Assembly: GCA_964518565.1 (NCBI GenBank) | Contig: CAZFGX010000001.1 | Location: 203,046-267,045, forward strand | Reading direction: 5' to 3' | DNA length: 64,000 nucleotides | From: an uncultured Gammaproteobacteria bacterium | Lineage (GTDB): Bacteria; Patescibacteriota; Microgenomatia; CAZETR01; Amesbacteraceae | Part shown: piece by piece, positions 2,914 through 48,211 of the stretch | How the letters are laid out: the number at the start of each line of letters is the position of its first letter | How positions within the stretch are numbered: the stretch's first letter is position 1 | Made by a program: the position numbers and the translations under genes | The notes under the pieces: generated by a model | Databases searched by the model: none | Seen by the model: the letters and a program-made list of their open reading frames with translations, nothing else | What the model was told of the DNA's origin: nothing

Positions 2914-4516
2914 GTTTAAATCTTTTTCTATACGACTACGTACGCCAGGATCTAACTTCTGGCCTCAGTGGTTTTTGCCATTATTAGGAGTGATGTTGAT
3001 GGTAATTTCAATATGCTCATTTGTCTATTTCTCTGAAATTAATCTCACGCTTGCATACAACGACGCTCGGTCACATTTGAACATAGGTCGGCGTGTAGTT
3101 GAAGGGCTAAAACCAGGTCTAGCTCAGTTAGGTTCTGTATGGTTGCCACTCACACATCTACTAATGGCGCCTACAATTTGGAACGACACGATGTGGCATA
3201 CCGGGTTAGCTGGTGCCATGCAATCTATGCTCGCATTCATTATTACTGGGCTGCTTATCTCTACTATCTTGAATCGTTTAGGGGTTAATAGGCTAGGGCA
3301 ATTAATCGCCGTATTAATATTTGCCACAAACTTAAATATTTTATATTTACAGTCTACTGCAATGACTGAGTTGATGCTATTAGTCACGATGACAGCTGGT
3401 TGTTACTATCTGATCAAATGGCATCAAAATGATGCCGTATTAGATCTGGTGAAGTCGGGCTTTTGGATCATGCTTTCTACGCTTATCCGCTACGATGGCT
3501 GGTTTTTATTGTTAGTGGCATCAGCTCTAGTAGCATGGAATACCTTTAAAAAGCATAATATCAGAACCGCTGAAGGTACGGTTGTATTATTTTGTTCTTT
3601 GGCTGGATTTGGAATTGCCCTCTGGTTTTTATGGAATCTGCTAATCTTTAAAGATCCTTTATATTTTGCGTTTGGACCTTTCTCCGCGCACACCCAACAA
3701 GAACAACTTTTAGCCTCTGGTGGGCTACCCACAAAAGGCAATCTGGTTTTGTCTTCAGAGGTATATCTATATGCTCTTTTATATAATTCATATAGTTTGC
3801 CCGCAATTATTGCACTTGTTGGACTTATTTGTTTCATTTCTGACCGCTCACTCCCATCAAGTTCACGGATGGCTGGATTGTCACTGCTTGCGCCATTAGT
3901 GTTTAATGTCGTTGCGCTTTATATGGGACATTCTGTGCTATATTTGCCAGATTTTTCTGGAAATAGTTGGTTCAATATTCGATACGGAGTAATGACCATC
4001 CCCGCAATCGCTATTTTTTGTGGCTATGCAATAAAACGACTTACTCAGGCTAAATGGTTAATCATAGGCACGTTAATGTTAGTAATAGGGCTAGCCTTCT
4101 TCAACCATGATGCTGTGACAGTAGATGACGCACGTTATGGTAGTAGCCAAAAAAATGTGACCGAAGTCGCGGGCTTCCTCAATGTTCATGCCAAAAATCA
4201 GAAAGAATTCATTCTTATTTCAGCGGCTTCGCACGACGCTATTATTTTTTCCTCAGGTCTGCCAATGAAAAGATTTATTCACGAAGGTACGGGGGCATAC
4301 TGGGATTCTGCAACAATCAATCCTGACAGATGGGCACGTTGGATAATTATGCGCACCTATGATAATAGTGACTTGACCTGGAAAAACGTCAACAAAACCC
4401 CTGGATTTAGTAGATATGACTTAGTGGGTCATTATCCATTTGCAGATATTTACGAACTTAAACCGGAATTTGTCCCTCAACTGATCACCACCCCCATCTT
4501 CGCCAACCAGAAATAA
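2906..4516 (+). CDS. multi-pass membrane protein (hypothetical, glycosylation-associated)
   Basis: 536 aa, many hydrophobic segments, start overlaps upstream gene end. Confidence 0.45.
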   Translation: MTKFKSFSIRLRTPGSNFWPQWFLPLLGVMLMVISICSFVYFSEINLTLAYNDARSHLNIGRRVVEGLKPGLAQLGSVWLPLTHLLMAPTIWNDTMWHTGLAGAMQSMLAFIITGLLISTILNRLGVNRLGQLIAVLIFATNLNILYLQSTAMTELMLLVTMTAGCYYLIKWHQNDAVLDLVKSGFWIMLSTLIRYDGWFLLLVASALVAWNTFKKHNIRTAEGTVVLFCSLAGFGIALWFLWNLLIFKDPLYFAFGPFSAHTQQEQLLASGGLPTKGNLVLSSEVYLYALLYNSYSLPAIIALVGLICFISDRSLPSSSRMAGLSLLAPLVFNVVALYMGHSVLYLPDFSGNSWFNIRYGVMTIPAIAIFCGYAIKRLTQAKWLIIGTLMLVIGLAFFNHDAVTVDDARYGSSQKNVTEVAGFLNVHAKNQKEFILISAASHDAIIFSSGLPMKRFIHEGTGAYWDSATINPDRWARWIIMRTYDNSDLTWKNVNKTPGFSRYDLVGHYPFADIYELKPEFVPQLITTPIFANQK

Positions 4517-4562
4517 ATCTCGGGTTGTGCATAATACCCTATAGTTGTATAATTATCCCCAT

Positions 4563-6617
4563 ATGAAACTCGTCACCACAGTTATAAATCAGATCGATGA
4601 TCAGGACAAAAACCGATTTGATTCAACAAAAAAAACAAACAAGTTAAAAAGTCTTATAGTCGATATGCTATTGCTCATCCTTGTTGCAAGTATCGGCTTC
4701 ACCCATATTTATTATCTGGTAAACAGTCAATTATTTTCTACCGGATATAGTGACTGGTTAATCCAAGCTTTTCGAGTGCGTTTTATATCAGAATTTGGGC
4801 TCAGCTCTTGGACACATCTTTGGTCAAACGGAATCAGTTTGTGGAGAGGTTATCAGTTCTTACCACATATTCTTACTTCTGAAATTACCAAAATATTCCA
4901 AATAGAAATTACCCGAGCAATGGTCATCTTGACCGTCATTCAGTTTATTGGAATGAGATTTATAATATATGCCTTAGCTAGATCGCAAAAATTCTCAGCT
5001 ATAACTGGCTTAGTTGCTGTAATTCTTTCCTATGATATTGGTCAATATTGGGGAGGAGTAAATGATTACTCTATTTTATTTGGCTTTACAATTTTTCCAT
5101 TATATTTGGCTATATGGATCCAATATACCAAAGGTCGTATGCAATGGGTTCTCCCTTACATACTAGGAATAGCTTTTTATATCCATCCATTATTAGCCGT
5201 ATATTCTGCTGGATTGTGGTTTACAGGTCTGTTGTTCAAAAGTTTATCAAGACCAAGACCAAAAATCTTATTCGCTCAATTGGCCATTTTTGTTGCAAGC
5301 AGTTCACTTTTTTGGGTTCAGCATATCTCGGGGTATGTAAAAAACTATTCTTCGCCTTTTTTTATCAGTTTGGCATTTTTTAAACAAACACTGGCAAATT
5401 TTTCGGCTCTTGGTTTGAGTATTGCCGTACTTATTGGCGGGGGTGTATTGTGGGTAACGCTTCCCACTATTAGTCAATCGGCCCGTTGGACCAGGGCAAT
5501 AGCACTCTACAGTCTAATTTGTCTTGTTGGTGTATTAATTTCTATTAACGTTCAGTTGCCAGGGATAATTGCGGAAACACAGTTTAGTCGAGGTATGACA
5601 TTTATCGCTTTAGCAATAATCGTTGGATTGATGCCTATAATTGAGAAAATAAAACAATCCCCGAGCTCGACACTCAAGTATCTTTTTGTGGCGTGTATCT
5701 CGCTGAGTATGGTCGAATCTTTTTGGATTTCAGGATCATTTGCCCCTCACTCAGGCCTACCGATAGAAGACCCTGTTGTAGCACTTCAAAAAAAATATCC
5801 CGAAATGAATATTCAAAATTCTCGTATTTGGACTCCTTATCTTGATGTTGCAAATAATAAAGCAACATTAAATGAAAAATACCCTAATTCTTATATGACA
5901 CATTCAGATTCTAATCAGGTCTCTGTCCGTTTAAGCAATTTACTTCTATACAACTCATTTCAAGATCGTGTGCCGAATGTCTCTCTTGATCGAGTAAAAC
6001 AATACATGCAAATCACCGCAACGCCATATGTGATATTTGAAAAAAACTCTCCTTTTGTTCGTTCCATTTCAGTTGACGATTCCGATATTAAAGACTTAGG
6101 CGATATAGAGTTAAAACGAAATATATTTCATGCCTATAAACTACTCAATGTCTCGCAGTCAGCAATCATTATTGATCCAACTCAAATACAAAAACTAGTT
6201 AAATTCCCAGAATCATTAAATCCAGCTGACCCACTAGATCAAACTTCTCTTGATCAGTATGTCTCCGAGTGGGTGAATATGGTATATGATCCAAAAAACC
6301 AACCAGTCACGATTCAGTACTCTGCGCAAGACACATTAGATATTTCAATTCCAAAACAACGCCTTTCAAACACCGTTTATATCCCTGAAAGTTATTCCAA
6401 AAATTGGCAAGGCTGGTTCAATGGTCAAAAAGTAGATATTACTCCTGTTGGTCCAAATTTTATAAGAGTAGATATGCATCAATCTGGGTCGTATGGATTG
6501 CTAATTCTAAAACATAATTGGCCTACTATTTGGTATATATCTTTGGCGACAATTTTATTGCTACCGGCTTTGTATATTGTTTTAAAAACAACACATCTTG
6601 TTATCTCAACTAAATAA
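4563..6617 (+). CDS. large membrane protein with C-terminal extracytoplasmic domain (hypothetical)
   Basis: Track start 4545 is TTG; ATG at 4563; ~400 aa polytopic N-region plus ~250 aa soluble region and terminal TM. Confidence 0.45.
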   Translation: MKLVTTVINQIDDQDKNRFDSTKKTNKLKSLIVDMLLLILVASIGFTHIYYLVNSQLFSTGYSDWLIQAFRVRFISEFGLSSWTHLWSNGISLWRGYQFLPHILTSEITKIFQIEITRAMVILTVIQFIGMRFIIYALARSQKFSAITGLVAVILSYDIGQYWGGVNDYSILFGFTIFPLYLAIWIQYTKGRMQWVLPYILGIAFYIHPLLAVYSAGLWFTGLLFKSLSRPRPKILFAQLAIFVASSSLFWVQHISGYVKNYSSPFFISLAFFKQTLANFSALGLSIAVLIGGGVLWVTLPTISQSARWTRAIALYSLICLVGVLISINVQLPGIIAETQFSRGMTFIALAIIVGLMPIIEKIKQSPSSTLKYLFVACISLSMVESFWISGSFAPHSGLPIEDPVVALQKKYPEMNIQNSRIWTPYLDVANNKATLNEKYPNSYMTHSDSNQVSVRLSNLLLYNSFQDRVPNVSLDRVKQYMQITATPYVIFEKNSPFVRSISVDDSDIKDLGDIELKRNIFHAYKLLNVSQSAIIIDPTQIQKLVKFPESLNPADPLDQTSLDQYVSEWVNMVYDPKNQPVTIQYSAQDTLDISIPKQRLSNTVYIPESYSKNWQGWFNGQKVDITPVGPNFIRVDMHQSGSYGLLILKHNWPTIWYISLATILLLPALYIVLKTTHLVISTK

Positions 6618-6618
6618 T

Positions 6619-8097
6619 ATGTTTCATCGTTTACAACCTCTACCTATTTCACTTTTACTCTTTATCACCTTGACACCCTTGGCTATTTTTTACTATGCAA
6701 TATATGTATTTAATCCTGCAAACATTGGGTTTTTGCCTCTATATATATTTCAGGTTGCAGCAGACACGATTTCTATCCTGATTGCCACATCACTTTGGCT
6801 CACTCTTCTCTTAGACATTCTTCAGCCTGAACACCATAAACGAAAGTTGCAAAACAATCCTGAATGGCTCAAAAAAAATCAAGTCACAGTAGACGTGTTT
6901 GTAACCGTACTCAATGAACCCATTGAAATAGTCACCGGCACACTCCAAGCGGCCGTGGATATGGATTATCCTCATAAAACGTTTCTACTTGACGATGGTA
7001 ACTCAGCTGAAATGAAACAAATTGCTGACCAACTTAATATTGAGTACATAGCTCGTCCAGTCACAGGCCGAAAACATGCAAAAGCCGGAAATATTAACTA
7101 CGGTCTCCAACGCACTCATGGAGAGTTTTTTGCGATATTCGATGCAGATTTTTCTCCGCGAAAAAATTTTCTTACTAAATTACTCCCATTTTTTGAAAAT
7201 AAAAAAATCGCTTTAGTGCAAACACCTCAATCATATAGTAATACGCACAATTTTATAGCCAGTGGTACAGCACAAGCTCAGGAAATTTTTTATAAATTCG
7301 TCATGCCAGCAAAAAATAGTTACAATGCGGCATTTTGCGTGGGGACAAATATGATTTACCGTCGCGATTCAATTAATCAAATTGGGGGAATTGCCAAATT
7401 AGACCACTCAGAAGATATTTGGACAACAATCAACTTACATGAAAAAGGTTATGAGTCAGTTTTTTATCATCAAGTATTGGCTACTGGAAGAGCGCCTGAG
7501 ACAGTATCTGCTTTCTTTAGGCAGCAAAATCGCTGGTCACAAGGTGGATTCTCACTCATGTTCACGAATAACCCCCTATTTAGCAAGTCATTAACAGTCG
7601 ACCAAAAAATACAATACTTTCTCTCAAACATCTTTTTCTTTAGTGGCTTTTCAATACTTATTTATTTATTGTTACCACTAACCTTTCTATTATTTGGCAT
7701 TCACCCTATGAAGCTAAACTCGTTGGAGTGGATAAAGCATTATGTACCATTTTTTCTTGCGATGTATATCATGCCCCTGACATTAATAGGTAAACCAAAA
7801 CTTGCAACAATCAGTGTTGCTCTGGCCAGCTTTTATCCGTATATCCAGGGTTTTTTTTCAACATTATTTCAGTCAAAGTTTATTTGGGTACCTACAGAAG
7901 CCAAAAAGAAAATACCAAGCCTAATTTCAATGCAAATCTGGCCACATCTATTTATTATTTTTGTCTCACTTTTCTCTCTTATTATAGGATGGTATAATGC
8001 AAACGACATCACGACAACTGTGGCTACGAGTATTTGGGTATCATTAAACACATATATTTTATTTTCATTTTTAAAAAATAGCCAAATAAAAAGCTAA
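6619..8097 (+). CDS. processive GT2 beta-glycan synthase (cellulose/curdlan/chitin-synthase-like)
   Basis: Motifs 'LDDGNS', 'FDADF', 'LVQTPQSY', 'QQNRWSQGG' (QxxRW) flanked by TM helices; track start 6598 is TTG, ATG at 6619 directly after upstream stop. Confidence 0.75.
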   Translation: MFHRLQPLPISLLLFITLTPLAIFYYAIYVFNPANIGFLPLYIFQVAADTISILIATSLWLTLLLDILQPEHHKRKLQNNPEWLKKNQVTVDVFVTVLNEPIEIVTGTLQAAVDMDYPHKTFLLDDGNSAEMKQIADQLNIEYIARPVTGRKHAKAGNINYGLQRTHGEFFAIFDADFSPRKNFLTKLLPFFENKKIALVQTPQSYSNTHNFIASGTAQAQEIFYKFVMPAKNSYNAAFCVGTNMIYRRDSINQIGGIAKLDHSEDIWTTINLHEKGYESVFYHQVLATGRAPETVSAFFRQQNRWSQGGFSLMFTNNPLFSKSLTVDQKIQYFLSNIFFFSGFSILIYLLLPLTFLLFGIHPMKLNSLEWIKHYVPFFLAMYIMPLTLIGKPKLATISVALASFYPYIQGFFSTLFQSKFIWVPTEAKKKIPSLISMQIWPHLFIIFVSLFSLIIGWYNANDITTTVATSIWVSLNTYILFSFLKNSQIKS

Positions 8098-8103
8098 ATC
8101 AAT

Positions 8104-8892
8104 ATGTTTATACAAAAAATTATTCGATCAAGTATTGATATTTTTGTCATATTTTTCATATTTGTTTTTTCTGTAGTTATTTCAACTATAGGTTTAACCG
8201 TAAAAGCAAATCAGTACAAATCTGAAAAAAATAACATAGTCAAAATCACTGTATATAAAAAGCCTATTCCCATACTTTCAACCACAAAAGGAATCATCCA
8301 AAAAGTTCACGTTAGGCCGGGTCAGGAAGTGCGAAGAGGCGACATCTTAGTAGAAATCGACAACCCAGTGTTAAAAGGTAAGATCACTGCCTTACAAAAC
8401 TATCCAGACAATCTATCAGCCAGAACTGAAGCTGAAGTTGCTCAAATCGAGTTAAATTATTTAAATGTTCCCTCACCAGTTGATGGTGTAGTTGGCGAAA
8501 TTCAAGTAACAGATGGAGTACCTGTCCAAGAGTTAACCCCATTGCTATCTTTGTATTCAAATGAAGATGTGACACTGACTACAAGTTTATATACCGATCA
8601 GTATTTACAACTCAAACAACAATCACTGGTAAAAGCCTATAACGAAAGATTAAACCAGACATTCCTCCTCACTCCATCTTTAGTTCGACCAGATATCGAA
8701 ATTCCTGTCGATCAAACCGATCAAAAAAAGATTGGGTTATATTTCAATCTCTTGCATAAAGAAGAAGCAGCTAGCCTTTTACAAAATGAAGATATGGAAT
8801 TGAGTACGAGTGTGGATGCTGCCGAAAACCCAAATCGCCCAATAGATTACGTTATTAATTTTTGGAATAGAATCCTTTTCGCATCCGAGTGA
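8104..8892 (+). CDS. membrane-fusion (HlyD)-like protein, short form
   Basis: N-terminal TM; lipoyl-like hairpin 'VHVRPGQEVRRGDILVEID' and beta-barrel-like 'SPVDGVVGEIQVTDGVPV' typical of MFP adaptors. Confidence 0.4.
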   Translation: MFIQKIIRSSIDIFVIFFIFVFSVVISTIGLTVKANQYKSEKNNIVKITVYKKPIPILSTTKGIIQKVHVRPGQEVRRGDILVEIDNPVLKGKITALQNYPDNLSARTEAEVAQIELNYLNVPSPVDGVVGEIQVTDGVPVQELTPLLSLYSNEDVTLTTSLYTDQYLQLKQQSLVKAYNERLNQTFLLTPSLVRPDIEIPVDQTDQKKIGLYFNLLHKEEAASLLQNEDMELSTSVDAAENPNRPIDYVINFWNRILFASE

Positions 8893-10787
8893 AATTAGCA
8901 ATCTTTTTGGTCTCCATCTTCGCACTCTCTGCGCTGTTCGTTTGGTTTTTTTTCTCGCCAGAGAAAAAAAACACTTCAATTGAACAACCAACTTCAAAAT
9001 CAAGTCATTCTCTATCCACAATAAAATCAAATAAATGGTTTAGTTCTATATACAAAGGTATACCAACTGCACCACTATATGCTCAGCCATTGGTGTATAA
9101 ATTTACGGATAAAGGAATACAAATTTCTTACCCAAAAATTGTTGTCGAGCCAAATACAATCTTCAGCCCTTTTACCTCTGATATTCAAATAGGTATCGGA
9201 CAAACCATTTCTTCACTAGAACCAGCTCAGATAGGGGATTGGCATATCAAAGTAAAAGCAAGTTCACAGACCGAAAATTTTTTGACAACTATTGGTCAAG
9301 GTCTTCCATATACTTATTTACATTCATCAACTAAAAATTGGCAAATTGATTTCGAAACTGGATATACCACAATAAATAAAACAAATACTTCTCAAACAGT
9401 TATGACAAATGAAAATCTATACCTCATCGTCTGGGATAAATCCGCTACTCTCGATGAGAGTGAACACCAAATAAAAATTAGTAACTCAGAAAAACTTTTT
9501 ATTGCTGTACTCGATGATAAAGAACACGAAAATTTATTTAAACAAATCAGTGAAGGGGCAATTGAATCAACTCAGGTTTCTTGGACAATAGATGCAGATA
9601 CGATAAAAGAAAATTTTCAAATTCAGCAACAAGCCAAATCACTCATTGCAATATTGCCTCATCAATATGCTGGACTCGTCCAAACATTCCCAGCTTTGGG
9701 TCAATATCGTAGCATACGTGGTCCAATGACATTAATACAAACAAATAAATTTCAAATAAAAATTTTTAGAATCACTCCTCCAGAATCATTTTCCATAATG
9801 GATTCTCCTGATTCCACTTTACTAAATAGTTTTATCCAAGACTCAAATGAATTGTTAAACAATCCTATCCCAGAAAGCAAAAATTATGGCCTGAGTGTCT
9901 GGATGGGAAAAATGGCAAATCAAATTGAACTAGCAAATGCCCTCAGGCAAGAAGCAGAAAAAAAACTTCTCATTACTCGTGCCGGAGAAGCATTAGAAGC
10001 TATCAATGAGTGGTATGAATATGATTCTAGACAACAAAGCATTGTGTCCAAGAGTCCTGAATTTGGCAACGAACGGTTAAACGACCACCACTTCCATTAT
10101 GGTTATGTCATTCGATTGGCCGCTATTTTGAAAAGGTATGGATATCAAATCCCGGAAGCAACCCAGCTTCGTATCAATGAAATTGTTCAAGATATCGCCA
10201 CCAATGACAGACAATCTGATCGCTTCCCGTTTGTAAGAAATTTTGATTTTTACGAAGGCCATTCCTGGGCAGATGGCTATGCCCAGTTTGCAGACGGACA
10301 AAACCAGGAGTCGAGTTCTGAAGCCATAAATGCCTGGTATGGATTATATTTATGGGCAAAGGTAAATTCAGATCCTGAAACCGAAAAATTAGCAATATTC
10401 TTATTTAATAGTGAAATCTACAGCACCAAGTATTACTGGTTTAATATTGGCAATATCTATCCCAAGCCGTATGAGCACGCAATTGCGTCACTAGTTTGGG
10501 GTGGAAAAGTAGATTTCACTACCTGGTTCGGTAATGACACAAATTTCAAGTATGGTATTCAGATTCTGCCTGTTACCCCTGCGTCAGGCTATCTCAAGAC
10601 TATTCCTAACTTTTTCAACTATGAAGGGGATTTTTTGCGCAGTGGTGGCAGCTATGATCGACCCTGGGGGGAACTTATGCAATTTTGGAAATCCCAATCG
10701 ACACGAGAAATTAGCCTCGATATGCTGCCAAAACAGCCAGAAACCACCCCAAGGTCAATTTTAGAATATTTTCTGCTTGCCGAGTAA
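8889..10787 (+). CDS. secreted glycoside hydrolase, GH81-like endo-beta-1,3-glucanase
   Basis: GTG start overlapping upstream TGA; signal/TM anchor; motifs 'NDHHFHYGY' and 'ESSSEAINAWYG' recalled as GH81 signatures. Confidence 0.55.
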   Translation: MKLAIFLVSIFALSALFVWFFFSPEKKNTSIEQPTSKSSHSLSTIKSNKWFSSIYKGIPTAPLYAQPLVYKFTDKGIQISYPKIVVEPNTIFSPFTSDIQIGIGQTISSLEPAQIGDWHIKVKASSQTENFLTTIGQGLPYTYLHSSTKNWQIDFETGYTTINKTNTSQTVMTNENLYLIVWDKSATLDESEHQIKISNSEKLFIAVLDDKEHENLFKQISEGAIESTQVSWTIDADTIKENFQIQQQAKSLIAILPHQYAGLVQTFPALGQYRSIRGPMTLIQTNKFQIKIFRITPPESFSIMDSPDSTLLNSFIQDSNELLNNPIPESKNYGLSVWMGKMANQIELANALRQEAEKKLLITRAGEALEAINEWYEYDSRQQSIVSKSPEFGNERLNDHHFHYGYVIRLAAILKRYGYQIPEATQLRINEIVQDIATNDRQSDRFPFVRNFDFYEGHSWADGYAQFADGQNQESSSEAINAWYGLYLWAKVNSDPETEKLAIFLFNSEIYSTKYYWFNIGNIYPKPYEHAIASLVWGGKVDFTTWFGNDTNFKYGIQILPVTPASGYLKTIPNFFNYEGDFLRSGGSYDRPWGELMQFWKSQSTREISLDMLPKQPETTPRSILEYFLLAE

Positions 10788-10805
10788 TTGACTATAGGGT
10801 ATAAT
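10776..10805 (+). promoter_or_regulatory. sigma70-like promoter TTGCCG-18-TATAAT upstream of giant PA14 gene
   Basis: Sequence 'ttgccgagtaattgactatagggtataat'; ATG at 10839. Confidence 0.3.
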
Positions 10806-10838
10806 GCCTTTACTTCCTGCTCTCCTAAACACCGTCTC

Positions 10839-13800
10839 ATGAAAAAAATCATTACATTCTTTATAGGGCTTTTTGCGCTGGTTTTAGCTGGCAGCTTATC
10901 GCCTAAAAGTATATTCGCTGCGCCTCCGCAAAACTTTCAAACCTCAGCCATAATTTCTACTGGGCTAGACGGACCTAGCGGCTTCCAATTTGCCCCGGAT
11001 GGTCGAATATTTATTCTACAAAGAACTGGAGAGGTAAAAATATATAAAAATGGCCAATTACTAGCGAATAATTTCATCACCCTTCCTTCTATCGCCTCAG
11101 GAGACCGTGGATTAATTGGTATTGCCTTTGATCCTGACTATGCTTCAAATAAATATGTATATTTTTATTACACCGCCTTAGACAAGCTTAACTATTTAGT
11201 AAGATTCTCAGCCGTGAACGATACCGCCAGTGATGGTCCGGTTATTATTTACCACACTACAAGCCCATCAGAACAATTACATGTTGGAGGAGGAATAGCT
11301 TTTGGAAATGACGGAAAACTTTATTTCACGGTCGGGGATAATGGATACCCTCCAAACGCACAAAGCTTAGATAATCCACACGGAAAGATACTTCGTATAA
11401 ACAAAGATGGTAGTATTCCCTCGGATAATCCGTTTGTAAACACTCCTGGTGCTTTACCTGAAATCTGGGCATACGGGTTAAGAAACCCTTGGCGTCTACA
11501 GTTTGATAGCACTACAGGAAAATTATATGACGGCGATGTGGGTCAAAATACCTGGGAAGAAGTGAATCTAATTGAGAAGGGGAAAAATTACGGCTGGCCG
11601 ACATGTGAAGGCAATTGTGGCACTTCCGGAATGACGAATCCAATCTATACCTACAACCATGACGGCTTGAGCTCTGCAGTCACAGGTGGTCCTGTATATC
11701 GTGGCACAATGTTCCCTTCTAGCTATGTCGGCAGATATTTTTTTGCCGATTATGCCCGAGGATTTATTCGCACCCTAGGGCTGGATGCAAATGGCAATTC
11801 AACCGACATGTCTGTATTTGATGCCAATGCCGGTACGCCGGTAGACCTGAGAGTTGCTCCAGATGGTTCGCTATATTACATCACCTATTATCCTGGTCGT
11901 TTGTATCGAATCACATATTCAACAACCAACCAGGTTCCAACTGCTTCAGCCGGTAGCAATGCCACAAAAGGATTGAGTCCTTTTACCGTAAACTTCACTT
12001 CAGCCGGATCAAGTGATCCAGAGAATAATCCCTTAAGTTTTTTTTGGGACTTCGGTGACGGTCAAACAAGTACTCAAGCCAATCCGTCTCATACATATAC
12101 AAATAATGGCTCATATCTTGCTCAGCTGACTGTGAGCGATGGTGTGAATACAGTAGATGCTATCCCCATTGTCATACAGGTTGGTATCGCCCCCACGGTG
12201 ACCATTGGTATGCCTGCAAATAACTCGCAATATAAATCTGGTGATTCAATCACATACTCGGTTTCTGCTACTGATGGCGTGGGAAACGATATGAATGACA
12301 ACGATATTGGCGTTGAAATCCTATTCCACCATTTGACCCACATTCACCCGTTTTTAGGTCCTCTGTATGGCAGAAACGGTACATTTGTAATTCCCACTAC
12401 AGGTGAACCATCCGATGCTACCTGGTTTGAGATCAAAGCTACAGCCACTGACACAAATGGACTTTCAACTACGAAATCGGTTTTTATCTACCCAAAAGTC
12501 GTTGACCTGACCTTCCAAACAAACCCCACTGGCTTACAAATTACACTCGATGGCGAACCTACCACTACGCCACAAACTATAAAGCATGTTGTTGGTTTTC
12601 AGCGTGAACTTTCAGCTAATGGTCCTCAATATGTTGGTGCAGACGTTTATCAATTTTCTGGTTGGTCCGATGGGGGAGGAGCAACACATACAATTTCCGT
12701 ACCAAATGTAAACACCACATATACAGCCAATTTTACAAAAACAGGCACAGTAGTACCATTTTCTGCGCAATATTTTTCTAACCAAAACCTTACGGGTTCC
12801 CCAACACTAACCAAAAACGACAATTTTATTAATTTTGATTGGGGAATAAATGCACCTGATTCCGCAATACCTGCAGACAACTTTTCTGTTCGCTGGACAA
12901 AAACAGACTCCTTTTCAGCTGGTAGTTATGAATTCTCAGTCACAGCCGACGACGGTCTGCGTCTATATATCGACAACAACCTAGTTATCGACAAGTGGGT
13001 AGACCAAGGAGCAACAACTTATAAAACCACTCAAGTTCTCACATCTGGTAATCACACCATCAAAATGGAGTACTATGAAAATGGTTACGATGCAGTCGCA
13101 AAATTAAACTGGATTCAATTGTCGGGCAATACCCCTACACCAACACCGACATCAATTCCTAGTGACCCAAATGCATTTTCTGGACAGTACTTCAACAATA
13201 AAAGTTTGACGGGTAATCCAGCCTTCACCAGAAATGACACAAATATAAACTTTGATTGGGCAGCGGGTAGTCCAGACCCAGTAATCACAGCAGACAACTT
13301 CTCTGTTCGCTGGACAAAAACATTGAACATTACTTCAGCTGGTGATTACAAGTTCTCAGTCACAGCCGATGATGGTGTTCGACTCAAAGTTGACGGCACA
13401 ACCATCATCGACAAATGGCAAGATCAGGCAGCCTCTATCTATACATCCACCGTAAATCTGGGACTAGGTAATCACACAGTAATCATGGAATACTATGAGA
13501 ATGGTGGAGAAGCAGTAGCAAAACTATCATGGTCTCAAATCACTCAAGTTCCAACACCCACCCCAACTCCAAATACAACAAATTCATTTACGGGTCAGTA
13601 CTGGAACATAGTTTGGAATGGAAATCCACAAATTCCTTCAACGAATCCAACTCTAACCAGACAAGACTCAAATATAAATTTTGATTGGGCATTAGTTTCT
13701 CCAGGCGCTGGTATAAACGCCGACGACTTTGTTGCTCGTTGGACCAAAACCGAGACATTTACTGCTGGTACATATCGTTTCTCAGTCACAGCCGATGATG

Positions 13801-15218
13801 GTGTACGTCTGTATGTGGACAACAACCTAGTCATCGACAAATGGCAACTCCAAGGTGCAACAACATACACTACAGATCAAATCCTTAGTGCCGGCGCTCA
13901 CACCATAAAAATGGAGTATTACGAACATCAAGAGGATGCAGTAGCCAAACTCTCTTGGACGTCTTTGACAACCGTACCTACTCCAACACCTACTCCGATA
14001 GTAAGTTCCAATTCATTCACAGGTGAATATTTTAATAATACGACCCTTTCTGGGACTCCTTCTCTTACTCGAGTCGATACAGATATTAATTTCGACTGGG
14101 CAAATGGGAATCCAGGATCCCCAATCCCAGCAGACAACTTCTCTGTTCGCTGGACAAAAACATTGAACATTACTTCAGCTGGTGATTACAAGTTCTCAGT
14201 CACAGCCGATGATGGTGTTCGACTCAAAGTTGACGGCACAACCATCATCGACAAATGGCAAGATCAGGCAGCCTCTACATATAATAGTACTAAGACTCTC
14301 GCTTCAGGCAACCATACCGTAGTTATGGAATATTACGAGAACTCTGGCTTAGCAGTTGCAAAACTCTCTTTTTCTCAAGTATCTGCAGCCCCAACTCCAA
14401 CACCGACGCCGTCCTTGAGTAATACCTTTACAGGAGAATATTGGAATGTAACTTGGACTGGTATACCAAATATTCCCAACGTGCCTGCCAATGTAGTGCG
14501 TACTGATGCAGATATCAATTTCGACTGGGCGCAATTAGCCCCAGCATCAGGTATAAACGCCGACGACTTTGTTGCTCGTTGGACCAAAACCGAGACATTT
14601 ACTGCTGGTACATATCGTTTCTCAGTCACAGCCGATGATGGTGTACGTCTGTATGTGGACAACAACCTAGTCATCGACAAATGGCAACTCCAAGGTGCTG
14701 CTACCTATACAACTGACCTAGTTTTAACTGCAGGTTCTCATGCCATAAAAATGGAGTATTTCGAACATCTTTTTGATGCAGTATCCAAATTAAGTTGGAC
14801 TAGTTTGGGAACACCGACTCCTACACCAACCCCAGCTCCCACTAATAATTTTGTTGGCCAATACTTTACAAATTCAAATCTATCGGGTGCTCCGTCTCTT
14901 GAACGTACTGACGCTCAAATCAATTTCGATTGGGGTTATGGTTCCCCGGCCGGAAGTATTCCTGTAGACAACTTTTCTGCCCGTTGGACTAAAACAGACA
15001 ACTTTGTAGGTGGCAATTATCAATTCTCTGTTTCATCAGATGATGGACTAAGAATAAAAGTTGACGGTACAAGTATCTATGATCAATGGATAGATCAGGC
15101 AGCAAATCCACAAACAATTACTGTTCCAATTAGTTCAGGTAGTCACACCATTACCGTCGAATATTACGAAAACGATTTAACTGCTAGTTGCCAAGTTTCA
15201 TGGGCTGCACTTCCGTAA
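10839..15218 (+). CDS. giant secreted protein: PQQ-type glucose/sorbosone dehydrogenase beta-propeller + PKD + Ig-like + 6x PA14 domains
   Basis: Track start 10788 is TTG; ATG 10839 gives signal peptide MKKIITFFIGLFALVLAGS; GSDH motifs 'GKILRINKDGSIPSDNPF', 'YGLRNPWR'; PKD 'WDFGDGQTS'; six ~120-aa PA14 units ('FSVRWTKT...FSVTADDGVRL..DG..IDKW...MEYYE') separated by PTPTPTP linkers. Confidence 0.8.
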   Translation: MKKIITFFIGLFALVLAGSLSPKSIFAAPPQNFQTSAIISTGLDGPSGFQFAPDGRIFILQRTGEVKIYKNGQLLANNFITLPSIASGDRGLIGIAFDPDYASNKYVYFYYTALDKLNYLVRFSAVNDTASDGPVIIYHTTSPSEQLHVGGGIAFGNDGKLYFTVGDNGYPPNAQSLDNPHGKILRINKDGSIPSDNPFVNTPGALPEIWAYGLRNPWRLQFDSTTGKLYDGDVGQNTWEEVNLIEKGKNYGWPTCEGNCGTSGMTNPIYTYNHDGLSSAVTGGPVYRGTMFPSSYVGRYFFADYARGFIRTLGLDANGNSTDMSVFDANAGTPVDLRVAPDGSLYYITYYPGRLYRITYSTTNQVPTASAGSNATKGLSPFTVNFTSAGSSDPENNPLSFFWDFGDGQTSTQANPSHTYTNNGSYLAQLTVSDGVNTVDAIPIVIQVGIAPTVTIGMPANNSQYKSGDSITYSVSATDGVGNDMNDNDIGVEILFHHLTHIHPFLGPLYGRNGTFVIPTTGEPSDATWFEIKATATDTNGLSTTKSVFIYPKVVDLTFQTNPTGLQITLDGEPTTTPQTIKHVVGFQRELSANGPQYVGADVYQFSGWSDGGGATHTISVPNVNTTYTANFTKTGTVVPFSAQYFSNQNLTGSPTLTKNDNFINFDWGINAPDSAIPADNFSVRWTKTDSFSAGSYEFSVTADDGLRLYIDNNLVIDKWVDQGATTYKTTQVLTSGNHTIKMEYYENGYDAVAKLNWIQLSGNTPTPTPTSIPSDPNAFSGQYFNNKSLTGNPAFTRNDTNINFDWAAGSPDPVITADNFSVRWTKTLNITSAGDYKFSVTADDGVRLKVDGTTIIDKWQDQAASIYTSTVNLGLGNHTVIMEYYENGGEAVAKLSWSQITQVPTPTPTPNTTNSFTGQYWNIVWNGNPQIPSTNPTLTRQDSNINFDWALVSPGAGINADDFVARWTKTETFTAGTYRFSVTADDGVRLYVDNNLVIDKWQLQGATTYTTDQILSAGAHTIKMEYYEHQEDAVAKLSWTSLTTVPTPTPTPIVSSNSFTGEYFNNTTLSGTPSLTRVDTDINFDWANGNPGSPIPADNFSVRWTKTLNITSAGDYKFSVTADDGVRLKVDGTTIIDKWQDQAASTYNSTKTLASGNHTVVMEYYENSGLAVAKLSFSQVSAAPTPTPTPSLSNTFTGEYWNVTWTGIPNIPNVPANVVRTDADINFDWAQLAPASGINADDFVARWTKTETFTAGTYRFSVTADDGVRLYVDNNLVIDKWQLQGAATYTTDLVLTAGSHAIKMEYFEHLFDAVSKLSWTSLGTPTPTPTPAPTNNFVGQYFTNSNLSGAPSLERTDAQINFDWGYGSPAGSIPVDNFSARWTKTDNFVGGNYQFSVSSDDGLRIKVDGTSIYDQWIDQAANPQTITVPISSGSHTITVEYYENDLTASCQVSWAALP
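13288..13858 (+). repeat. intragenic duplicated unit copy 1 (two PA14 domains)
   Basis: 13288-13437 is 100% identical to 14128-14277 and 13711-13858 is 100% identical to 14551-14698 (840-bp offset); flanks diverged. Confidence 0.85.
14128..14698 (+). repeat. intragenic duplicated unit copy 2 (two PA14 domains)
   Basis: See copy 1; identical cores verified by direct reading. Confidence 0.85.
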
Positions 15219-15246
15219 CAGTGTCTCAGGCCGTAATATAAACCTT

Positions 15247-16521
15247 ATGACTCGTAAATATCTTATTTCTTCGTCAGCTATGATTCTCGTGGGAATGTGT
15301 ATCTTCATGTATGCGAAAACCAAATCAGCTCTGTCTGCCGAGGAGACTTTACATCCAAAATTTTGGTCGGTGCAATCTATAGATACAGTCAAATACTCTC
15401 GAGACGTTGCTCGCGAAAAACTACATGATAGTAGTTTTGACACGACAATTGACGCCCAGATAAAACAAATAGCTTCAACCGGTGCAACGCATGTTGCTAT
15501 TGGTACTCCATACGACGACGAATTTTTACCATATCTAAAACGTTGGGTATCTGCAGCTCGTACACACAATCTCCATGTGTGGTTTAGAGGAAATTGGTCC
15601 GGCTGGGAAGGATGGTTTAATTATCCAAATATCACTGCTAAACAACATGTTTCCCAAACAGTTGTTTTTATAAAAAATAATCCTGACTTATTTGTGGATG
15701 GTGACATTTTTAGCCCATGTCCCGAGTGTGAAAATGGTCAAATTGGTGACCCACGTCAAACAGGTAAAATTCAAGAATTTCGCCAGTTTCTTATAGATTT
15801 AACCAATGGATGTGAAACTGCTGCAACTGAAATTAAAAAATCAATAATTTGTAACTACCATTCCATGAATGGAGATGTAGCTAGACTAATCATGGACAAG
15901 GAAACGACGCAAAAATTAGGAGGAGTAGTTGTTGTAGATCACTATGTGAAAGAACCCACTCAAATGGCTAAAGATCTCAAGGAATTTGCACTTCAGACCG
16001 GAGGCAAAGTAGTTCTAGGAGAATTTGGCGCCCCTTTACCAGATATTCACGGTAACATGTCCCAAGAACAACAAGCAGCATGGATATCTGAGACATTAAA
16101 CCAAGTAATTGAAATTCCCGAAGTGGTTGGGGTGAATTATTGGACGAATGTTGGTGGATCTACTGGTCTATGGGACTCTCATAACCAGCCAAGAGTAGGA
16201 GTGTCCTCCTTGTCACAAATTTATCAACCTAATGAAATAATTATCCACGTAAAAAATATAATTGATAAACCCATAGTCAGTAGTGCACTGTATTTAGATA
16301 AAACATTTGCTAGTGACAAAACAGGCAGTATTCGTTTACCAAAACAATTAAATAAATCAGTTATCCCTGCGATTATTATTGCTGCAGATGGGTATAAAGA
16401 TCAGGGAGTATATTTAGGAGCCACAGAGGCAGAAACAACAATTGTCTTAGAAAAACAATCTGAAAGTATATGGTTCAAACTCCAAGTATTGCTTTTTAAG
16501 CTATCCCATAGTATAATATAA
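15247..16521 (+). CDS. membrane-anchored clan GH-A (GH5-like) glycoside hydrolase
   Basis: N-terminal TM; TIM-barrel-like strands; 'HYVKEP' (NEP-like acid/base) and 'VVLGEFGAP' (nucleophile Glu) motifs. Confidence 0.45.
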   Translation: MTRKYLISSSAMILVGMCIFMYAKTKSALSAEETLHPKFWSVQSIDTVKYSRDVAREKLHDSSFDTTIDAQIKQIASTGATHVAIGTPYDDEFLPYLKRWVSAARTHNLHVWFRGNWSGWEGWFNYPNITAKQHVSQTVVFIKNNPDLFVDGDIFSPCPECENGQIGDPRQTGKIQEFRQFLIDLTNGCETAATEIKKSIICNYHSMNGDVARLIMDKETTQKLGGVVVVDHYVKEPTQMAKDLKEFALQTGGKVVLGEFGAPLPDIHGNMSQEQQAAWISETLNQVIEIPEVVGVNYWTNVGGSTGLWDSHNQPRVGVSSLSQIYQPNEIIIHVKNIIDKPIVSSALYLDKTFASDKTGSIRLPKQLNKSVIPAIIIAADGYKDQGVYLGATEAETTIVLEKQSESIWFKLQVLLFKLSHSII

Positions 16522-16526
16522 ATACT

Positions 16527-17408
16527 GTGAAGATATCAACAAAAGTTTCGTCCGCGATTCTTATCATGGTTTCCTTAGGACTACAGGCTAGTCCTGTATT
16601 AGCATCGTATACTCCAAATTTTCCTGCGTGTCCTAATCCGGGTGGTAATCTGACCGCTCAATATAATTCAGGTTTACACGGTATTCCAGGTGACTCACAA
16701 GAATATGTTGGATCTGATTCAGTATTTCAAATTAATTCAACCCAGTGGGTTCAATGTTTTTGTCCACAAAACGGTGCAGGAATTCAAACAAACTGGTTAC
16801 TACTCCAAGATCCTTCCGAGTCTGAAATATCAGCATACAAAAACCAAGGCTGGGTATTTATTCCAGATGGATCTGCCTGGGGACTTCAAGCTGCTAGTTA
16901 TGTAGCTCAAAATAGCTCGATTTCATGTGTTGGTGGCACAGGAAATGGTAACGATAGTTCAGCAAATACCAACTCTTCTAATACATCAGTTTGTGATTCG
17001 ATCAAACCAGGCACTCCAGTATTAACTTCAATAAAACGAATAGGATCAACAGCAACCCTTTCTTGGAATCCTGTTCAAAACGCTACTCATTACTCAATTT
17101 CTTATGGAGTCGAATCAGGTAAATATTTATACGGTGTTCCGAATACAGGCAATGTGACTCAATTCACCATTGGTAGCCTAGATCCAAATAAAACTTATTA
17201 CTGGGAAGTACGAGCCGTCAACAATTGTATGCCATCAGACGCTTCCTCCCAGCCTTCAGCTGCTCGAGGTGGTGGGGATATCCTGGGTAGTTCTACAGGG
17301 TTTGCACCTACTGGAGATTGGTCAATACTTATTCTAGCTGCAGGTATTGGGTGTATATTGACTGGTCTATCAGTGGCTATGAGAAATGGCCATGAATCAA
17401 AAAAATAA
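16527..17408 (+). CDS. secreted fibronectin-type-III surface protein with C-terminal sorting-signal-like tail
   Basis: GTG start, signal peptide; FN3 'LSWNPVQNATHYSISYG...YYWEVRAVN'; C-terminus 'GFAPTGDWSILILAAGIGCILTGLSVAMRNGHESKK' (motif+TM+basic tail). Confidence 0.55.
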   Translation: MKISTKVSSAILIMVSLGLQASPVLASYTPNFPACPNPGGNLTAQYNSGLHGIPGDSQEYVGSDSVFQINSTQWVQCFCPQNGAGIQTNWLLLQDPSESEISAYKNQGWVFIPDGSAWGLQAASYVAQNSSISCVGGTGNGNDSSANTNSSNTSVCDSIKPGTPVLTSIKRIGSTATLSWNPVQNATHYSISYGVESGKYLYGVPNTGNVTQFTIGSLDPNKTYYWEVRAVNNCMPSDASSQPSAARGGGDILGSSTGFAPTGDWSILILAAGIGCILTGLSVAMRNGHESKK

Positions 17409-17895
17409 TCTCTCCAGACTTTTATTCTTTCTTGGGCTCCTTTGCTTTGTTTTTGTTGGAGTGTTGATAGTAGATCGGTTAAAAAATAATACGGTATCCT
17501 TTGACCAGCTTCCTGTCACTTCTGAGACAAATACACAACCAGACGGTATCGAAATATCTACCCAACAAATCCGACTTGCCGTTGTCTCAAAAAAAGTTGA
17601 AAAAAGCTTTCCCACATCAAAAACAACCGCTATACATATTCAAGGTACAAACATATATTACGCTCACAACTGGCCAAACTTATTTGGAAATCTTAAAAAG
17701 ATTAAAATCAACGATCCAATAGTAATCCATTTCTCCAACGGTCAAATAAAAAAATATCTGGTCACTCAAACTGAATCTGTGTGGCCATCGGACACGAGTA
17801 TTTTAAATCAGAACAATTCAGAAACGATTGTCGTCTATACATGTACGGGAGTTTTTGACATCAAAAGGTTGGTCATAGTGGCTAAATCTGTTTGA
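17386..17895 (+). CDS. sortase family transpeptidase
   Basis: N-terminal TM, conserved His region 'IHIQGTNIYYAHNWPN', catalytic 'VVYTCTG' (TLxTC) motif; overlaps 3' end of FN3 gene. Confidence 0.7.
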   Translation: MAMNQKNNLSRLLFFLGLLCFVFVGVLIVDRLKNNTVSFDQLPVTSETNTQPDGIEISTQQIRLAVVSKKVEKSFPTSKTTAIHIQGTNIYYAHNWPNLFGNLKKIKINDPIVIHFSNGQIKKYLVTQTESVWPSDTSILNQNNSETIVVYTCTGVFDIKRLVIVAKSV

Positions 17896-28300: not shown

Positions 28301-30484
28301 ATGAAAATTGGTTTGTCAGTTGTTATTCCAGCCTATAACGAAGAAGAAAATGTTGCTAGCTGTCTGGAAAAAGTAAACAAAGTCTTAAAAACGCATCCCG
28401 AAATTGATGCCCAAATAATCTTAGTAAACGATGGTTCAAAAGATAAAACAGGTAAGATAGCAGAAAATTATAAAAATAAAATCGGTAATTTAACGGTAGT
28501 CCACAACAATCCTAATCGGGGATATGGTGGCTCATTAAAAGCAGGTTTTGAAAAAGCAGAAAAAGAATTTATTGTATTCACTCCAGCAGATAACCAATTT
28601 GATTTTTCAGAAGTAACAAAACTAATTGACAAGCAAAAAGAAACAGATTCGGACATTGTATCTGGTATACGTGTTGGAGGAGGTGTAGATCCCATACATA
28701 GAAAGTTAAATAGATGGGGCTGGAATACTGTGGTTCGTGCGCTATTTGGATATTTAGCGACTGATATAGACTGCGGCTTCAAGCTTTTTCGAAGAGAAAT
28801 TTTGTCACATGTGTACATACCTGCCGAACGTGGAGCCATGATCGATACCCAACTCTTTGCAAGCGCTAGGGCTAAGGGGTTTTCTGTGGCTGAAATACCA
28901 CTAACACATCTTCCACGGACGGCTGGAAAATCAACAGGCGCTAATTTTCGAGTTATTATTCAGTCGTTTATTGACTTAATCACTTTTTGGTGGCAATTAA
29001 AAAAAGAAATTTTAGTAGAACGTGGTCTAGCAGTATTCCCATGGGAGATGATTGCAATTTTTAGTATTCTTATTATCTCTTTATTCCTCCGACTATACAA
29101 AATTGATCAGTATATGACATTTTTAGGGGATGAAGGCAGAGATGCCCTAGTGTTACGAGAAATCGTTTTAGGACAACATGTACCTCTCATTGGCCCCGGA
29201 ACATCTATAGGAAACATGTACCTAGGTCCTCTGTATTATTATCTAACAGCCCCTGCAATCGCTATTGCGAAACTTTCTCCAGTCGGACCTGCTGTAGAAG
29301 TAGCATTATTTGGCGTTCTTACTGTTGGACTAATTTGGTGGATAGGTCGTCAATGGTTTGGGAGAATCTCTGCTCTAGTAAGTAGTGTTTTGTATGCAAT
29401 TGCCCCCACTGTCATTATCTACTCTCGTTCATCGTGGAATCCAAATATCATGCCATTTTTTGCCCTACTAGCAATATATTCAATCTGGAAAGTATGGCGC
29501 TTTGGATATTGGCGCTGGTTACTAGTTACTGCAATAAGTATGGCATTTGTTTTAAATAGTCATTATTTGGGTCTTATCCTATTACCCACAATTTGTTTCG
29601 TCTGGCTTTTACGAAAAAAAACCCCGGAATCCAAAAAATATTCACTTCTTGCACTAATAATTTTCTGCGTATGCATGTCTCCGTTGCTTTTCTTTGATTT
29701 AAGGCACAACTGGCAAAACTCACGAGCGGTAAAACAGTTTTTTACCAACAGAGAAAACACTGTCAATTTAAAAGCATACAAATCCTTTCCAAAAATTATA
29801 CCTACCACCAGTGCGATATCTGAGACGCTATTGGCGGCTAAAAAACCTCAATTAAACATTTATATTATTATTTTTGTATCAGTAACATTTATATACGCCG
29901 CATTTTCTAAAAAAATATCCAAAGATATTGGATTTTTACTTTTATGGTTTTTTATCGGTTGTGTAGGACTAAGCTTGTACAAGCAACATGTATACGACCA
30001 TTATTATGGTTTCCTGTTTCCGGTACCCTTTCTTCTGTTTGGGTTCTGTATTTCGATTTTGTTACATCAAAAAAATATTTTAGTTAAAAGCATGGCAGTA
30101 ATTATAAGTAGTGCAGTAATTTTTATAAATCTTTCACAAAATCCTTTAAAATTTAGTCCAAATAACCAGCTAAAAAATACACAAATGATATCAGAATTCA
30201 TTAAAGAAAAATCTAGCGATCAGCCTTTTAATCTCGCGTTATTGTCTAAATCAAATTATGACGCAAGTTATAGATATTTTTTAACATTAAATCAATCTCA
30301 ATATAAAAAAATTGACCATCAAAAAACTAATCAATTATATGTAATCTGTGAGTATCAGCCCTGTTCTCCTATTGGTAATCCATTGTGGGAAATTGCAGCA
30401 TTTGGATGGGCAAAAATTGATTCAGTATGGAATGTGTCAGGCGTAGAAATCTATCGCTTGCTGCCTAACCCTCAAGGATCATGA
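28301..30484 (+). CDS. bifunctional GT2 (DPM-synthase-like) - GT-C membrane glycosyltransferase fusion
   Basis: N-term 'VVIPAYNEEEN...VNDGSKDKT...FTPADNQFD'; C-term polytopic domain with 'GDEGRDALVLREIVLG...GPLYYY'. Confidence 0.65.
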   Translation: MKIGLSVVIPAYNEEENVASCLEKVNKVLKTHPEIDAQIILVNDGSKDKTGKIAENYKNKIGNLTVVHNNPNRGYGGSLKAGFEKAEKEFIVFTPADNQFDFSEVTKLIDKQKETDSDIVSGIRVGGGVDPIHRKLNRWGWNTVVRALFGYLATDIDCGFKLFRREILSHVYIPAERGAMIDTQLFASARAKGFSVAEIPLTHLPRTAGKSTGANFRVIIQSFIDLITFWWQLKKEILVERGLAVFPWEMIAIFSILIISLFLRLYKIDQYMTFLGDEGRDALVLREIVLGQHVPLIGPGTSIGNMYLGPLYYYLTAPAIAIAKLSPVGPAVEVALFGVLTVGLIWWIGRQWFGRISALVSSVLYAIAPTVIIYSRSSWNPNIMPFFALLAIYSIWKVWRFGYWRWLLVTAISMAFVLNSHYLGLILLPTICFVWLLRKKTPESKKYSLLALIIFCVCMSPLLFFDLRHNWQNSRAVKQFFTNRENTVNLKAYKSFPKIIPTTSAISETLLAAKKPQLNIYIIIFVSVTFIYAAFSKKISKDIGFLLLWFFIGCVGLSLYKQHVYDHYYGFLFPVPFLLFGFCISILLHQKNILVKSMAVIISSAVIFINLSQNPLKFSPNNQLKNTQMISEFIKEKSSDQPFNLALLSKSNYDASYRYFLTLNQSQYKKIDHQKTNQLYVICEYQPCSPIGNPLWEIAAFGWAKIDSVWNVSGVEIYRLLPNPQGS

Positions 30485-33382: not shown

Positions 33383-33386
33383 ATAT

Positions 33387-34148
33387 ATGCAACCATATCT
33401 GTCAATCATTGTTCCAGCATATAACGAAGAGCAAAACATTAATAAAGGGGTGATTGAAGGACTGGTCGAATATCTAAATAGTCAAACATTCACTTGGGAA
33501 ATACTAATTGTAAATGATGGCTCGACGGATCAAACAGATAAATTAATTAAGAAGATTTCAAAAGATAATAATAAAATTATTTACATACAAAACCCTCACA
33601 TGGGAAAGGCAGCTACAATTATGACCGGAGCGGCAAGAGCAAACGGTAAGTACTTTGTGTATACAGATATGGATCAAGCCACCCCAATTTCTGAAATACA
33701 TAAACTTTTGCACCAGCTAAATCAAGGTATAGACATTGTCATTGGTTCGCGCCAAAATCGAAAAGGAGCACCATTGTTTCGTCAAATATTGGCTTATGGA
33801 AATGTTATTATGCGCACATTAATTCTACGTCTACCGTATAAAGATACCCAATGTGGATTTAAGGCTTTTAGTTCATCTTCAGCAAAAAAAATATTTTTGA
33901 TTATGCAAAAATTCCATCCTCTAAAAGTGATTGACGGGCCAGCAGTAAATGCGGGATTTGATATGGAAATACTTTTTTTAGCCAGAAAATTAAAATATCG
34001 AGTGGTCGAGGTACCAGTTCAGTGGCGGCATCAAGAAACAAAACGTGTCTCGTTTATTAGAGATGCTTTCGCGAGTATGAAAGAATTAATGCTTATTCGC
34101 TATCGCGCGATTACAAATGCTTACGATCTAACCGATGACAATAAATAA
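33387..34148 (+). CDS. glycosyltransferase family 2 (polyprenyl-phosphate sugar synthase-like)
   Basis: 'LSIIVPAYNEEQNI', 'VNDGSTDQT', 'YTDMDQATP'; track 33321 start replaced by ATG 33387. Confidence 0.7.
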   Translation: MQPYLSIIVPAYNEEQNINKGVIEGLVEYLNSQTFTWEILIVNDGSTDQTDKLIKKISKDNNKIIYIQNPHMGKAATIMTGAARANGKYFVYTDMDQATPISEIHKLLHQLNQGIDIVIGSRQNRKGAPLFRQILAYGNVIMRTLILRLPYKDTQCGFKAFSSSSAKKIFLIMQKFHPLKVIDGPAVNAGFDMEILFLARKLKYRVVEVPVQWRHQETKRVSFIRDAFASMKELMLIRYRAITNAYDLTDDNK

Positions 34149-48208: not shown

Positions 48209-48211
48209 CTT

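Follow-up and report, generated by a model that had tools for sequence, protein, structure and literature searches.

Six PA14 modules lie in tandem at the C-terminal end of a secreted protein encoded in the window, by which we mean the whole 64,000-nucleotide (nt) stretch of contig CAZFGX010000001.1 analyzed here, and within this otherwise diverged array two stretches of about 150 nt each occur twice without a single difference. This arrangement raises the question of how perfect identity comes to sit inside paralogous modules that have drifted far apart, and whether it records one of the two origins named in the original prediction, gene conversion or the partial duplication, in the very recent past, of a two-PA14 unit, or some other cause. 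We find that the two-module duplication is old and that the cores were homogenized recently, and we consider it likely that short-tract gene conversion between the old paralogous PA14 units made the cores. The host of this mosaic gene is probably a small-genome, Patescibacteria-type bacterium.

The identity itself was established by exact string comparison. Segment 13288-13437, in the second module (D2), matches 14128-14277, in the fourth (D4), over all 150 nt, just as predicted; for the second core, shared by the third and fifth modules (D3 and D5), the predicted identity stands as well, but its true start is 13710/14550, one base to the left of the proposed 13711/14551. No mismatch was found within either core, and both pairs are offset by exactly 840 nt (280 codons). 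When the two units are set against each other in this +840 register (13176-14015 versus 14016-14855), the longest match runs measure 150, 149, 18, and 9 nt. Shuffling the matches and mismatches along the register 20,000 times never produced a run above 59, and a run of 149 nt has an analytic probability of ~1e-32; chance as the source of the cores is excluded. Between themselves, core 1 and core 2 are only ~70% identical. Tandem Repeats Finder did not report the PA14 array because its modules are too diverged, and register comparison and codon alignments were used instead.

Beyond the cores, overall identity between the two 840-nt units is 59% and falls to 41% at third codon positions, the latter being the level of any unrelated PA14 pair, whereas the cores show 0 differences in 299 nt (95% upper bound on divergence, ~1%). 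The Nei-Gojobori proportion of synonymous differences (pS) reaches 0.88 in the flanks of D2/D4 and 0.59 in those of D3/D5, against 0 inside the cores, and the proportion of nonsynonymous differences (pN) is ~0.25 in both flank pairs, with nonsynonymous divergences (dN) of 0.30 and 0.27, respectively. Codons specifying the same amino acid in both partners are identical in 14/44 cases (0.32) in the D2/D4 flanks and in 18/42 (0.43) in the D3/D5 flanks, compared with a background of 0.39-0.47 for any PA14 pair in three genes (the window gene and two homologs); inside the cores, the counts are 46/46 and 44/45. The high pS together with a pN of ~0.25 marks the flanks as old and constrained by purifying selection, and the absence of any core difference next to flanks saturated at synonymous sites argues for gene conversion, as one half of the original prediction had it, and not for a very recent duplication. 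That prediction had also described the linkers and the N-terminal halves of the domains as diverged, which is correct but incomplete, since the C-terminal thirds are equally diverged.

The flanks also tell how the units are related. Module pairs are 55-76% identical overall, and a codon alignment of all six modules displays an A/B-like alternation in which D2 goes with D4 and D3 with D5. Both D3 and D5 are of the W-type and have a common 7-amino-acid (aa) insertion, the spacers between the cores are equal in length (272 nt), which marks D2-D3 and D4-D5 as homologous two-module units, and at the protein level the flanks of D2/D4 (62% identity) and D3/D5 (64%) are mutual best matches among the 8 proteins compared. 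Taken together, the equal spacers, the shared insertion, and the mutual best matches indicate that the units are genuine paralogs, albeit old ones. The cores cluster by genome, and the nearest ortholog, at 62% identity, is too distant to settle positional orthology. A hint of older conversions among D1 to D5, where the same-amino-acid codon identity of the core is 0.60 versus 0.44-0.47 in two homologs, was dropped, since this signal is largely due to protein constraint (the core of the ortholog is also ~78% identical at the nt level).

The two islands occupy the same segment of the PA14 fold. They cover columns 38-85 and 35-83 of the PA14 hidden Markov model (HMM), their ends agree within ~7 nt, and the edges of both islands coincide with or adjoin valleys in the conservation profile of the domain (columns 33-38 and 88-92). 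An AlphaFold model of D2-D3 has a predicted local distance difference test (pLDDT) score of 92, which drops below 50 over residues 125-133, a span that takes in the PT linker; in this model, the core segment (D2 residues 39-87) forms the four central strands with an invariant Asp-Asp pair. This pair is present in all six modules and is invariant in 32 aligned dyads. The CBL2 loop lies in the diverged C-flank and is different in each module (ENGYD, ENGGE, EHQED, ENSGL, EHLFD, and ENDLT). The best solved relative by sequence is 6QE7 (E 1e-41), and the top Foldseek matches are 6QE7 and 6QDI, with single PA14 lectins at a root mean square deviation of 2.9-4 Å. In the RsgI structures, a ligand-contacting calcium is bound by the Asp-Asp pair and the CBL2 loop, and CBL2 determines specificity for pectin versus xylan (PMC6852018). 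The window modules are candidate calcium-dependent (DcisD) PA14 lectins, a type marked by Asp-Asp on the central strand and by a CBL2 loop bearing Asn or Gln.

Homologs were surveyed for similar islands by a protein-level screen followed by DNA retrieval. In one homolog (L085, protein P0023), adjacent modules share a perfect 96-nt island (5642-5737 = 6053-6148; columns 51-81) within saturated flanks, where 19/43 same-amino-acid codons are identical. In a second (L084, P0056), a 110-nt island (5457-5566 = 5862-5971; columns 36-71) likewise links adjacent modules, in this case a younger pair. These two genes, from unrelated homologs, have G+C contents of 43% and 67%, respectively, and their islands fall in the central domain segment that also holds the window's cores; a further locus (L086) holds several patches of 35-53 nt. 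Partial homogenization of PA14 cores thus recurs in the family without being universal. A different pattern was seen in another family member (L083, P0034), where 925 contiguous nt with one mismatch are repeated at an offset of 810 within 3987-5721, the duplicated unit again comprising two modules, together with a third partial copy of 115 nt; this repeat may stem from a duplication of very recent date or from a fault in the assembly of that record. The searched collections yielded no relative at strain level, nor any with more than 62% protein identity. Scans of metagenomes with 39 nt of exact core and with a degenerate back-translation of WTKTLNITSAGDYKF gave 0 matches each, and the matches listed from a scan of genome contigs were all distant relatives with GSDH or PA14.

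We propose the following course of events. Long ago, a unit of two modules would have been duplicated in tandem to give D2-D3 and D4-D5, 840 nt each, and the copies would have drifted to saturation at silent sites. Intragenic gene conversion, that is, nonreciprocal homologous recombination, may then have transferred the central segment from D2 to D4 or the reverse, and likewise that of D3 to D5 or the reverse, and such conversion may be ongoing. The tracts would end at the poorly conserved loops on both sides, where the paralogs may be too unlike for strand exchange; selection for module-specific CBL2 loops may strengthen this limit or may be an alternative or additional cause of the boundaries. 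Two pairs of in-phase 150-nt direct repeats would be the by-product, and a RecA-type crossover between them would lose or gain exactly 280 codons (two modules) in frame. It is tempting to speculate, although we regard it as unlikely, that the mosaic is itself selected, with conversion keeping the calcium-binding scaffold identical while CBL1a and CBL2 differ, so that a multispecific lectin array with valency switching results; if true, the in-phase 150-nt repeats would give reversible in-frame gain and loss of the two-module unit, and the similar edges of islands in unrelated homologs hint at a family-wide rule.

Several observations weigh against gene conversion as the origin of the cores. 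The event is deduced from a single sequence. Two tracts of near-equal length at the same domain position would be a coincidence, at a rough estimate of 1e-3 under random boundaries. The account of the edges by homology valleys is only partly convincing, since the variable columns 48-52, 55, and 57 lie within the core, and INFDW, EYYEN, and other blocks are as conserved as the core. The nearest homologs (L001 and L082) contain no exact intragenic repeat of at least 30 nt. Finally, the length of the core equals a common Illumina read length (150 nt), which leaves some room for a contribution from the assembly.

This last point leads to the explanation that we assign a small probability, namely, that assembly or polishing collapsed near-identical cores to one version or misassembled the order or copy number of segments. 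Both cores, at 150 and 149 nt, match the common short-read length, 150-nt reads cannot span exact repeats of this size, and no second assembly of the organism was found in the searched collections. The matching lengths are, however, accounted for by the fact that both islands cover the same domain segment, and islands of 96, 110, and 154 nt occur in homologs from other assemblies. Moreover, a De Bruijn collapse merges only paths that are already at least ~95% identical, such that a strong island of identity would remain real even then; all junctions, including linkers and flanks, are unique sequence that no assembler can invent; and the array sits in a 1.0-Mb contig.

A cassette-like replacement of the flanks strikes us as quite improbable. 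Here, a recent and perfect 840-nt duplication would have been followed by the import of diverged flanks, with the cores as anchors. Other bacteria do have mosaic genes of this type, the cores would suit as recombination anchors, and two-module duplications do occur in the family, as the 925-nt repeat described above illustrates. Such a history would nevertheless require at least three separate imports that all spared the same domain segment, the D2/D4 and D3/D5 flanks are each other's best match among the 8 proteins and are without foreign affinity, and no donor copy is present within the 64-kb window.

The other half of the original prediction, that a two-PA14 unit was partially duplicated very recently, did not hold up, and we consider it very improbable. 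The exact in-frame offset of 840 nt and the equal 272-nt spacers do show that the units are homologous, as this explanation would have it, but silent sites have reached saturation in both the 272-nt intercore segments and the outer flanks, and a recent duplication would leave contiguous identity such as that of the 925-nt repeat, instead of two islands parted by 272 nt at ~60% identity. Extremely improbable, in our estimate, is a requirement for the cores at the nucleotide level, be it as structured RNA, as an internal regulatory site, or as the template and variable repeats of a diversity-generating retroelement (DGR): core 1 folds somewhat better than its shuffles (z = -2.3), but no such advantage is seen for core 2 (z = +0.9) or for the antisense strands, there is no Rfam match in the window, and the two cores are only ~70% identical, as given above. 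A DGR was rejected as a candidate, given that the repeats show zero differences, whereas DGR pairs differ at adenines; a scan of 24 window proteins (14 within ~10 kb of the array), a set that does not include every open reading frame (ORF) of the window, turned up no reverse transcriptase.

The arrangement of the repeats makes it plausible that the array is prone to recombination, possibly variable in copy number, and a hazard to assembly, and that crossover at the repeats would yield 4- or 8-module proteins. Among the 120 best family members, 4, 5, or 6 PA14 modules were counted in 7, 77, and 36 proteins, respectively, and 4-module members of 1160-1189 aa exist. For annotators and assemblers, the locus is a caution that such arrays hold in-phase exact repeats of read length.

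The coordinates of the gene, its domains, and the cores are collected in the table below. The ORF is open from TTG 10788; the start chosen here, ATG 10839, agrees with the database protein P0001, which is 100% identical to the window protein over 1459 aa and is a singleton in a cluster look-up. The protein begins with a Sec-type signal peptide, an unassigned Ig-like stretch lies between the PKD domain and the PA14 array, and PTPTPT linkers set the six PA14 modules apart. That there are six tandem PA14 domains, as originally predicted, was confirmed by Pfam (PF07691, 6 stretches, E 1.5e-119, 395 bits versus a cutoff of 24) and by our own HMM segmentation, which yielded six envelopes starting at 12759, 13176, 13587, 14016, 14427, and 14850.

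Features of the PA14 gene and of its repeated cores (positions are those of the window)
Feature	Positions	Strand	Description
Gene of the 1459-aa secreted protein	10839..15218	+	signal peptide, GSDH propeller, PKD, Ig-like region, 6 x PA14
GSDH (glucose/sorbosone dehydrogenase-type beta-propeller) domain	10965..11906	+	aa 43-356; PF07995, E 9.9e-66
PKD domain	11931..12161	+	aa 365-441; PF18911, E 5e-18
PA14 module D1 and PT-rich linker	12759..13175	+	Pfam and HMM segmentation
PA14 module D2 and linker	13176..13586	+	HMM segmentation
Core 1, D2 copy	13288..13437	+	150 nt; encodes ADNFSVRWTKTLNITSAGDYKFSVTADDGVRLKVDGTTIIDKWQDQAAS, four central strands and Asp-Asp calcium motif
Intercore segment, unit 1	13438..13709	+	272 nt; D2 C-flank with CBL2 loop, PT linker, D3 N-flank; ~60% identical to partner
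PA14 module D3 (W-type, 7-aa insertion) and linker	13587..14015	+	HMM segmentation
Core 2, D3 copy	13710..13858	+	149 nt; encodes GINADDFVARWTKTETFTAGTYRFSVTADDGVRLYVDNNLVIDKWQLQGA
PA14 module D4 and linker	14016..14426	+	HMM segmentation
Core 1, D4 copy	14128..14277	+	100% identical to 13288-13437
Intercore segment, unit 2	14278..14549	+	272 nt; D4 C-flank, linker, D5 N-flank
PA14 module D5 (W-type) and linker	14427..14849	+	HMM segmentation
Core 2, D5 copy	14550..14698	+	100% identical to 13710-13858
PA14 module D6 (C-terminal, most diverged of the six)	14850..15215	+	HMM segmentation

Some further features of the array and its surroundings deserve mention. Core 1 contains, at 13330-13345 (copy at 14170-14185), the sequence GCTGGTGA, a 7/8 match to the Escherichia coli Chi octamer GCTGGTGG, although the Chi of the host may differ; GCTGGTAC, noted beside it, lies within core 2. 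The Chi-like match in the cores is probably a coincidence. Antisense ORFs of 80-101 aa run through the array (13595-13870, 13928-14170, and 14375-14680, all on the minus strand) and partially overlap the cores; because these ORFs do not extend equally in the two units, they are probably spurious. The G+C content is 0.41-0.43 at 10001-16000, the region of the PA14 gene, versus 0.31-0.39 in most of the window, a difference that could stem from the makeup of the encoded protein or from a foreign origin.

We then considered the neighborhood of the gene. Upstream (6598-10787) lie a GT2 cellulose-synthase-like glycosyltransferase, an HlyD-like protein, and a GH81 endo-beta-1,3-glucanase, and downstream follow a 424-aa protein without a Pfam match, an fn3 protein, and a sortase. 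The same gene order is found at the locus of the nearest (62%-identical) homolog (L001, 1805-5929). A GT2 gene is also located upstream of the homologs in L082, L083, and L085, where the gene adjoining the homolog encodes a GH8 protein, a protein without a Pfam match, and a PMT_2-like protein, respectively. This suggests a conserved module for the synthesis and processing of glucan or exopolysaccharide. At the C terminus of the fn3 protein (16527-17408), FAPTGD is followed by a hydrophobic helix and a basic tail, an arrangement similar to a sortase sorting signal, and the sortase gene (17386-17895) directly follows; the PA14 protein itself has no such signal. No C-terminal sorting signal or anchor was found in the PA14 protein, whose chain stops at the last PA14 strand (…VSWAALP). 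The original label of "adhesin-like" is therefore doubtful, given the GSDH propeller and PKD domain that make up the N-terminal half, the lack of a C-terminal anchor, and the GT2, HlyD-like, and GH81 neighbors. Instead, we infer from this neighborhood, and from RsgI3 and RsgI4 as the best solved relatives, that the PA14 protein is a secreted enzyme that binds polysaccharides and belongs to a locus for glucan or exopolysaccharide, and not a classical adhesin.

Elsewhere in the window, long tandem runs of paralogous genes of ~480-550 aa occupy 28301-35643 and 46592-60887, several of which match PMT_2 or GT-C membrane glycosyltransferases, and a conserved 62-nt motif is present in five paralogs of those runs (46679, 51379, 56222, 57775, and 59370). 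Neither tRNA genes nor Rfam families were found anywhere in the 64 kb.

The window array is a new instance of a known process and not a new kind of system. Intragenic (nonallelic) gene conversion, or concerted evolution, has published examples in bacterial rRNA operons and in the PE/PPE genes of Mycobacterium tuberculosis, and tuf is a further example. As in those cases, we observe perfect, sharp-edged tracts of at most a few hundred nt inside old diverged paralogs, in the better-conserved part of the repeat. The window differs in that the partners are alternate modules (i, i+2) of one protein-coding array and in that two tracts cover the same structural segment in two different module pairs, and it is known here from one sequence. 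The added interest is modest and lies in a scaffold that is homogenized while the specificity loops are diverged, a pattern that comes up again in unrelated homologs. As a single-sequence case in which gene conversion would have homogenized only part of a repeated domain, namely, the structural core with its putative calcium-binding motif, and left the putative specificity loops divergent, the array may serve as a textbook-style case for the evolution of repeat proteins.

Within the same protein family, the L083 repeat is comparable in that its duplicated unit also consists of two modules (810 versus 840 nt), but its identity is contiguous over 925 nt, whereas that of the window is limited to the two 150-nt islands. 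The PA14 dyads of the clostridial anti-sigma factors RsgI3 and RsgI4 (PDB 6QE7 and 6QDI; PMC6852018) are the best match in both sequence and fold, and they share the Asp-Asp pair (a putative DcisD motif in the window modules) and the Tyr-Tyr and CBL2 loop region; their role is in polysaccharide binding, as would be that of the window protein. In those proteins, however, two modules are packed as a dyad on a membrane sensor, whereas the window protein has six modules joined by flexible PT linkers on a secreted GSDH/PKD protein. Periscope proteins, which are bacterial surface proteins of variable length with high-identity tandem domain repeats (Whelan et al. 2021, PMC8201768), likewise consist of tandem folded domains on DNA repeats that are able to recombine in frame and thereby alter the number of domains. 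Their repeats are highly identical along the whole length and form a cell-wall-anchored stalk, whereas in the window identity is restricted to the two islands on a background of 59%, the lectin-like PA14 modules stand at the C terminus of an enzyme-like protein without an anchor, and variation in module number is seen at the family level only. If two-module, in-frame gain and loss should prove true among strains, the idea of the variable-length surface protein would extend to carbohydrate-binding arrays on enzymes that uncultured small-genome bacteria secrete.

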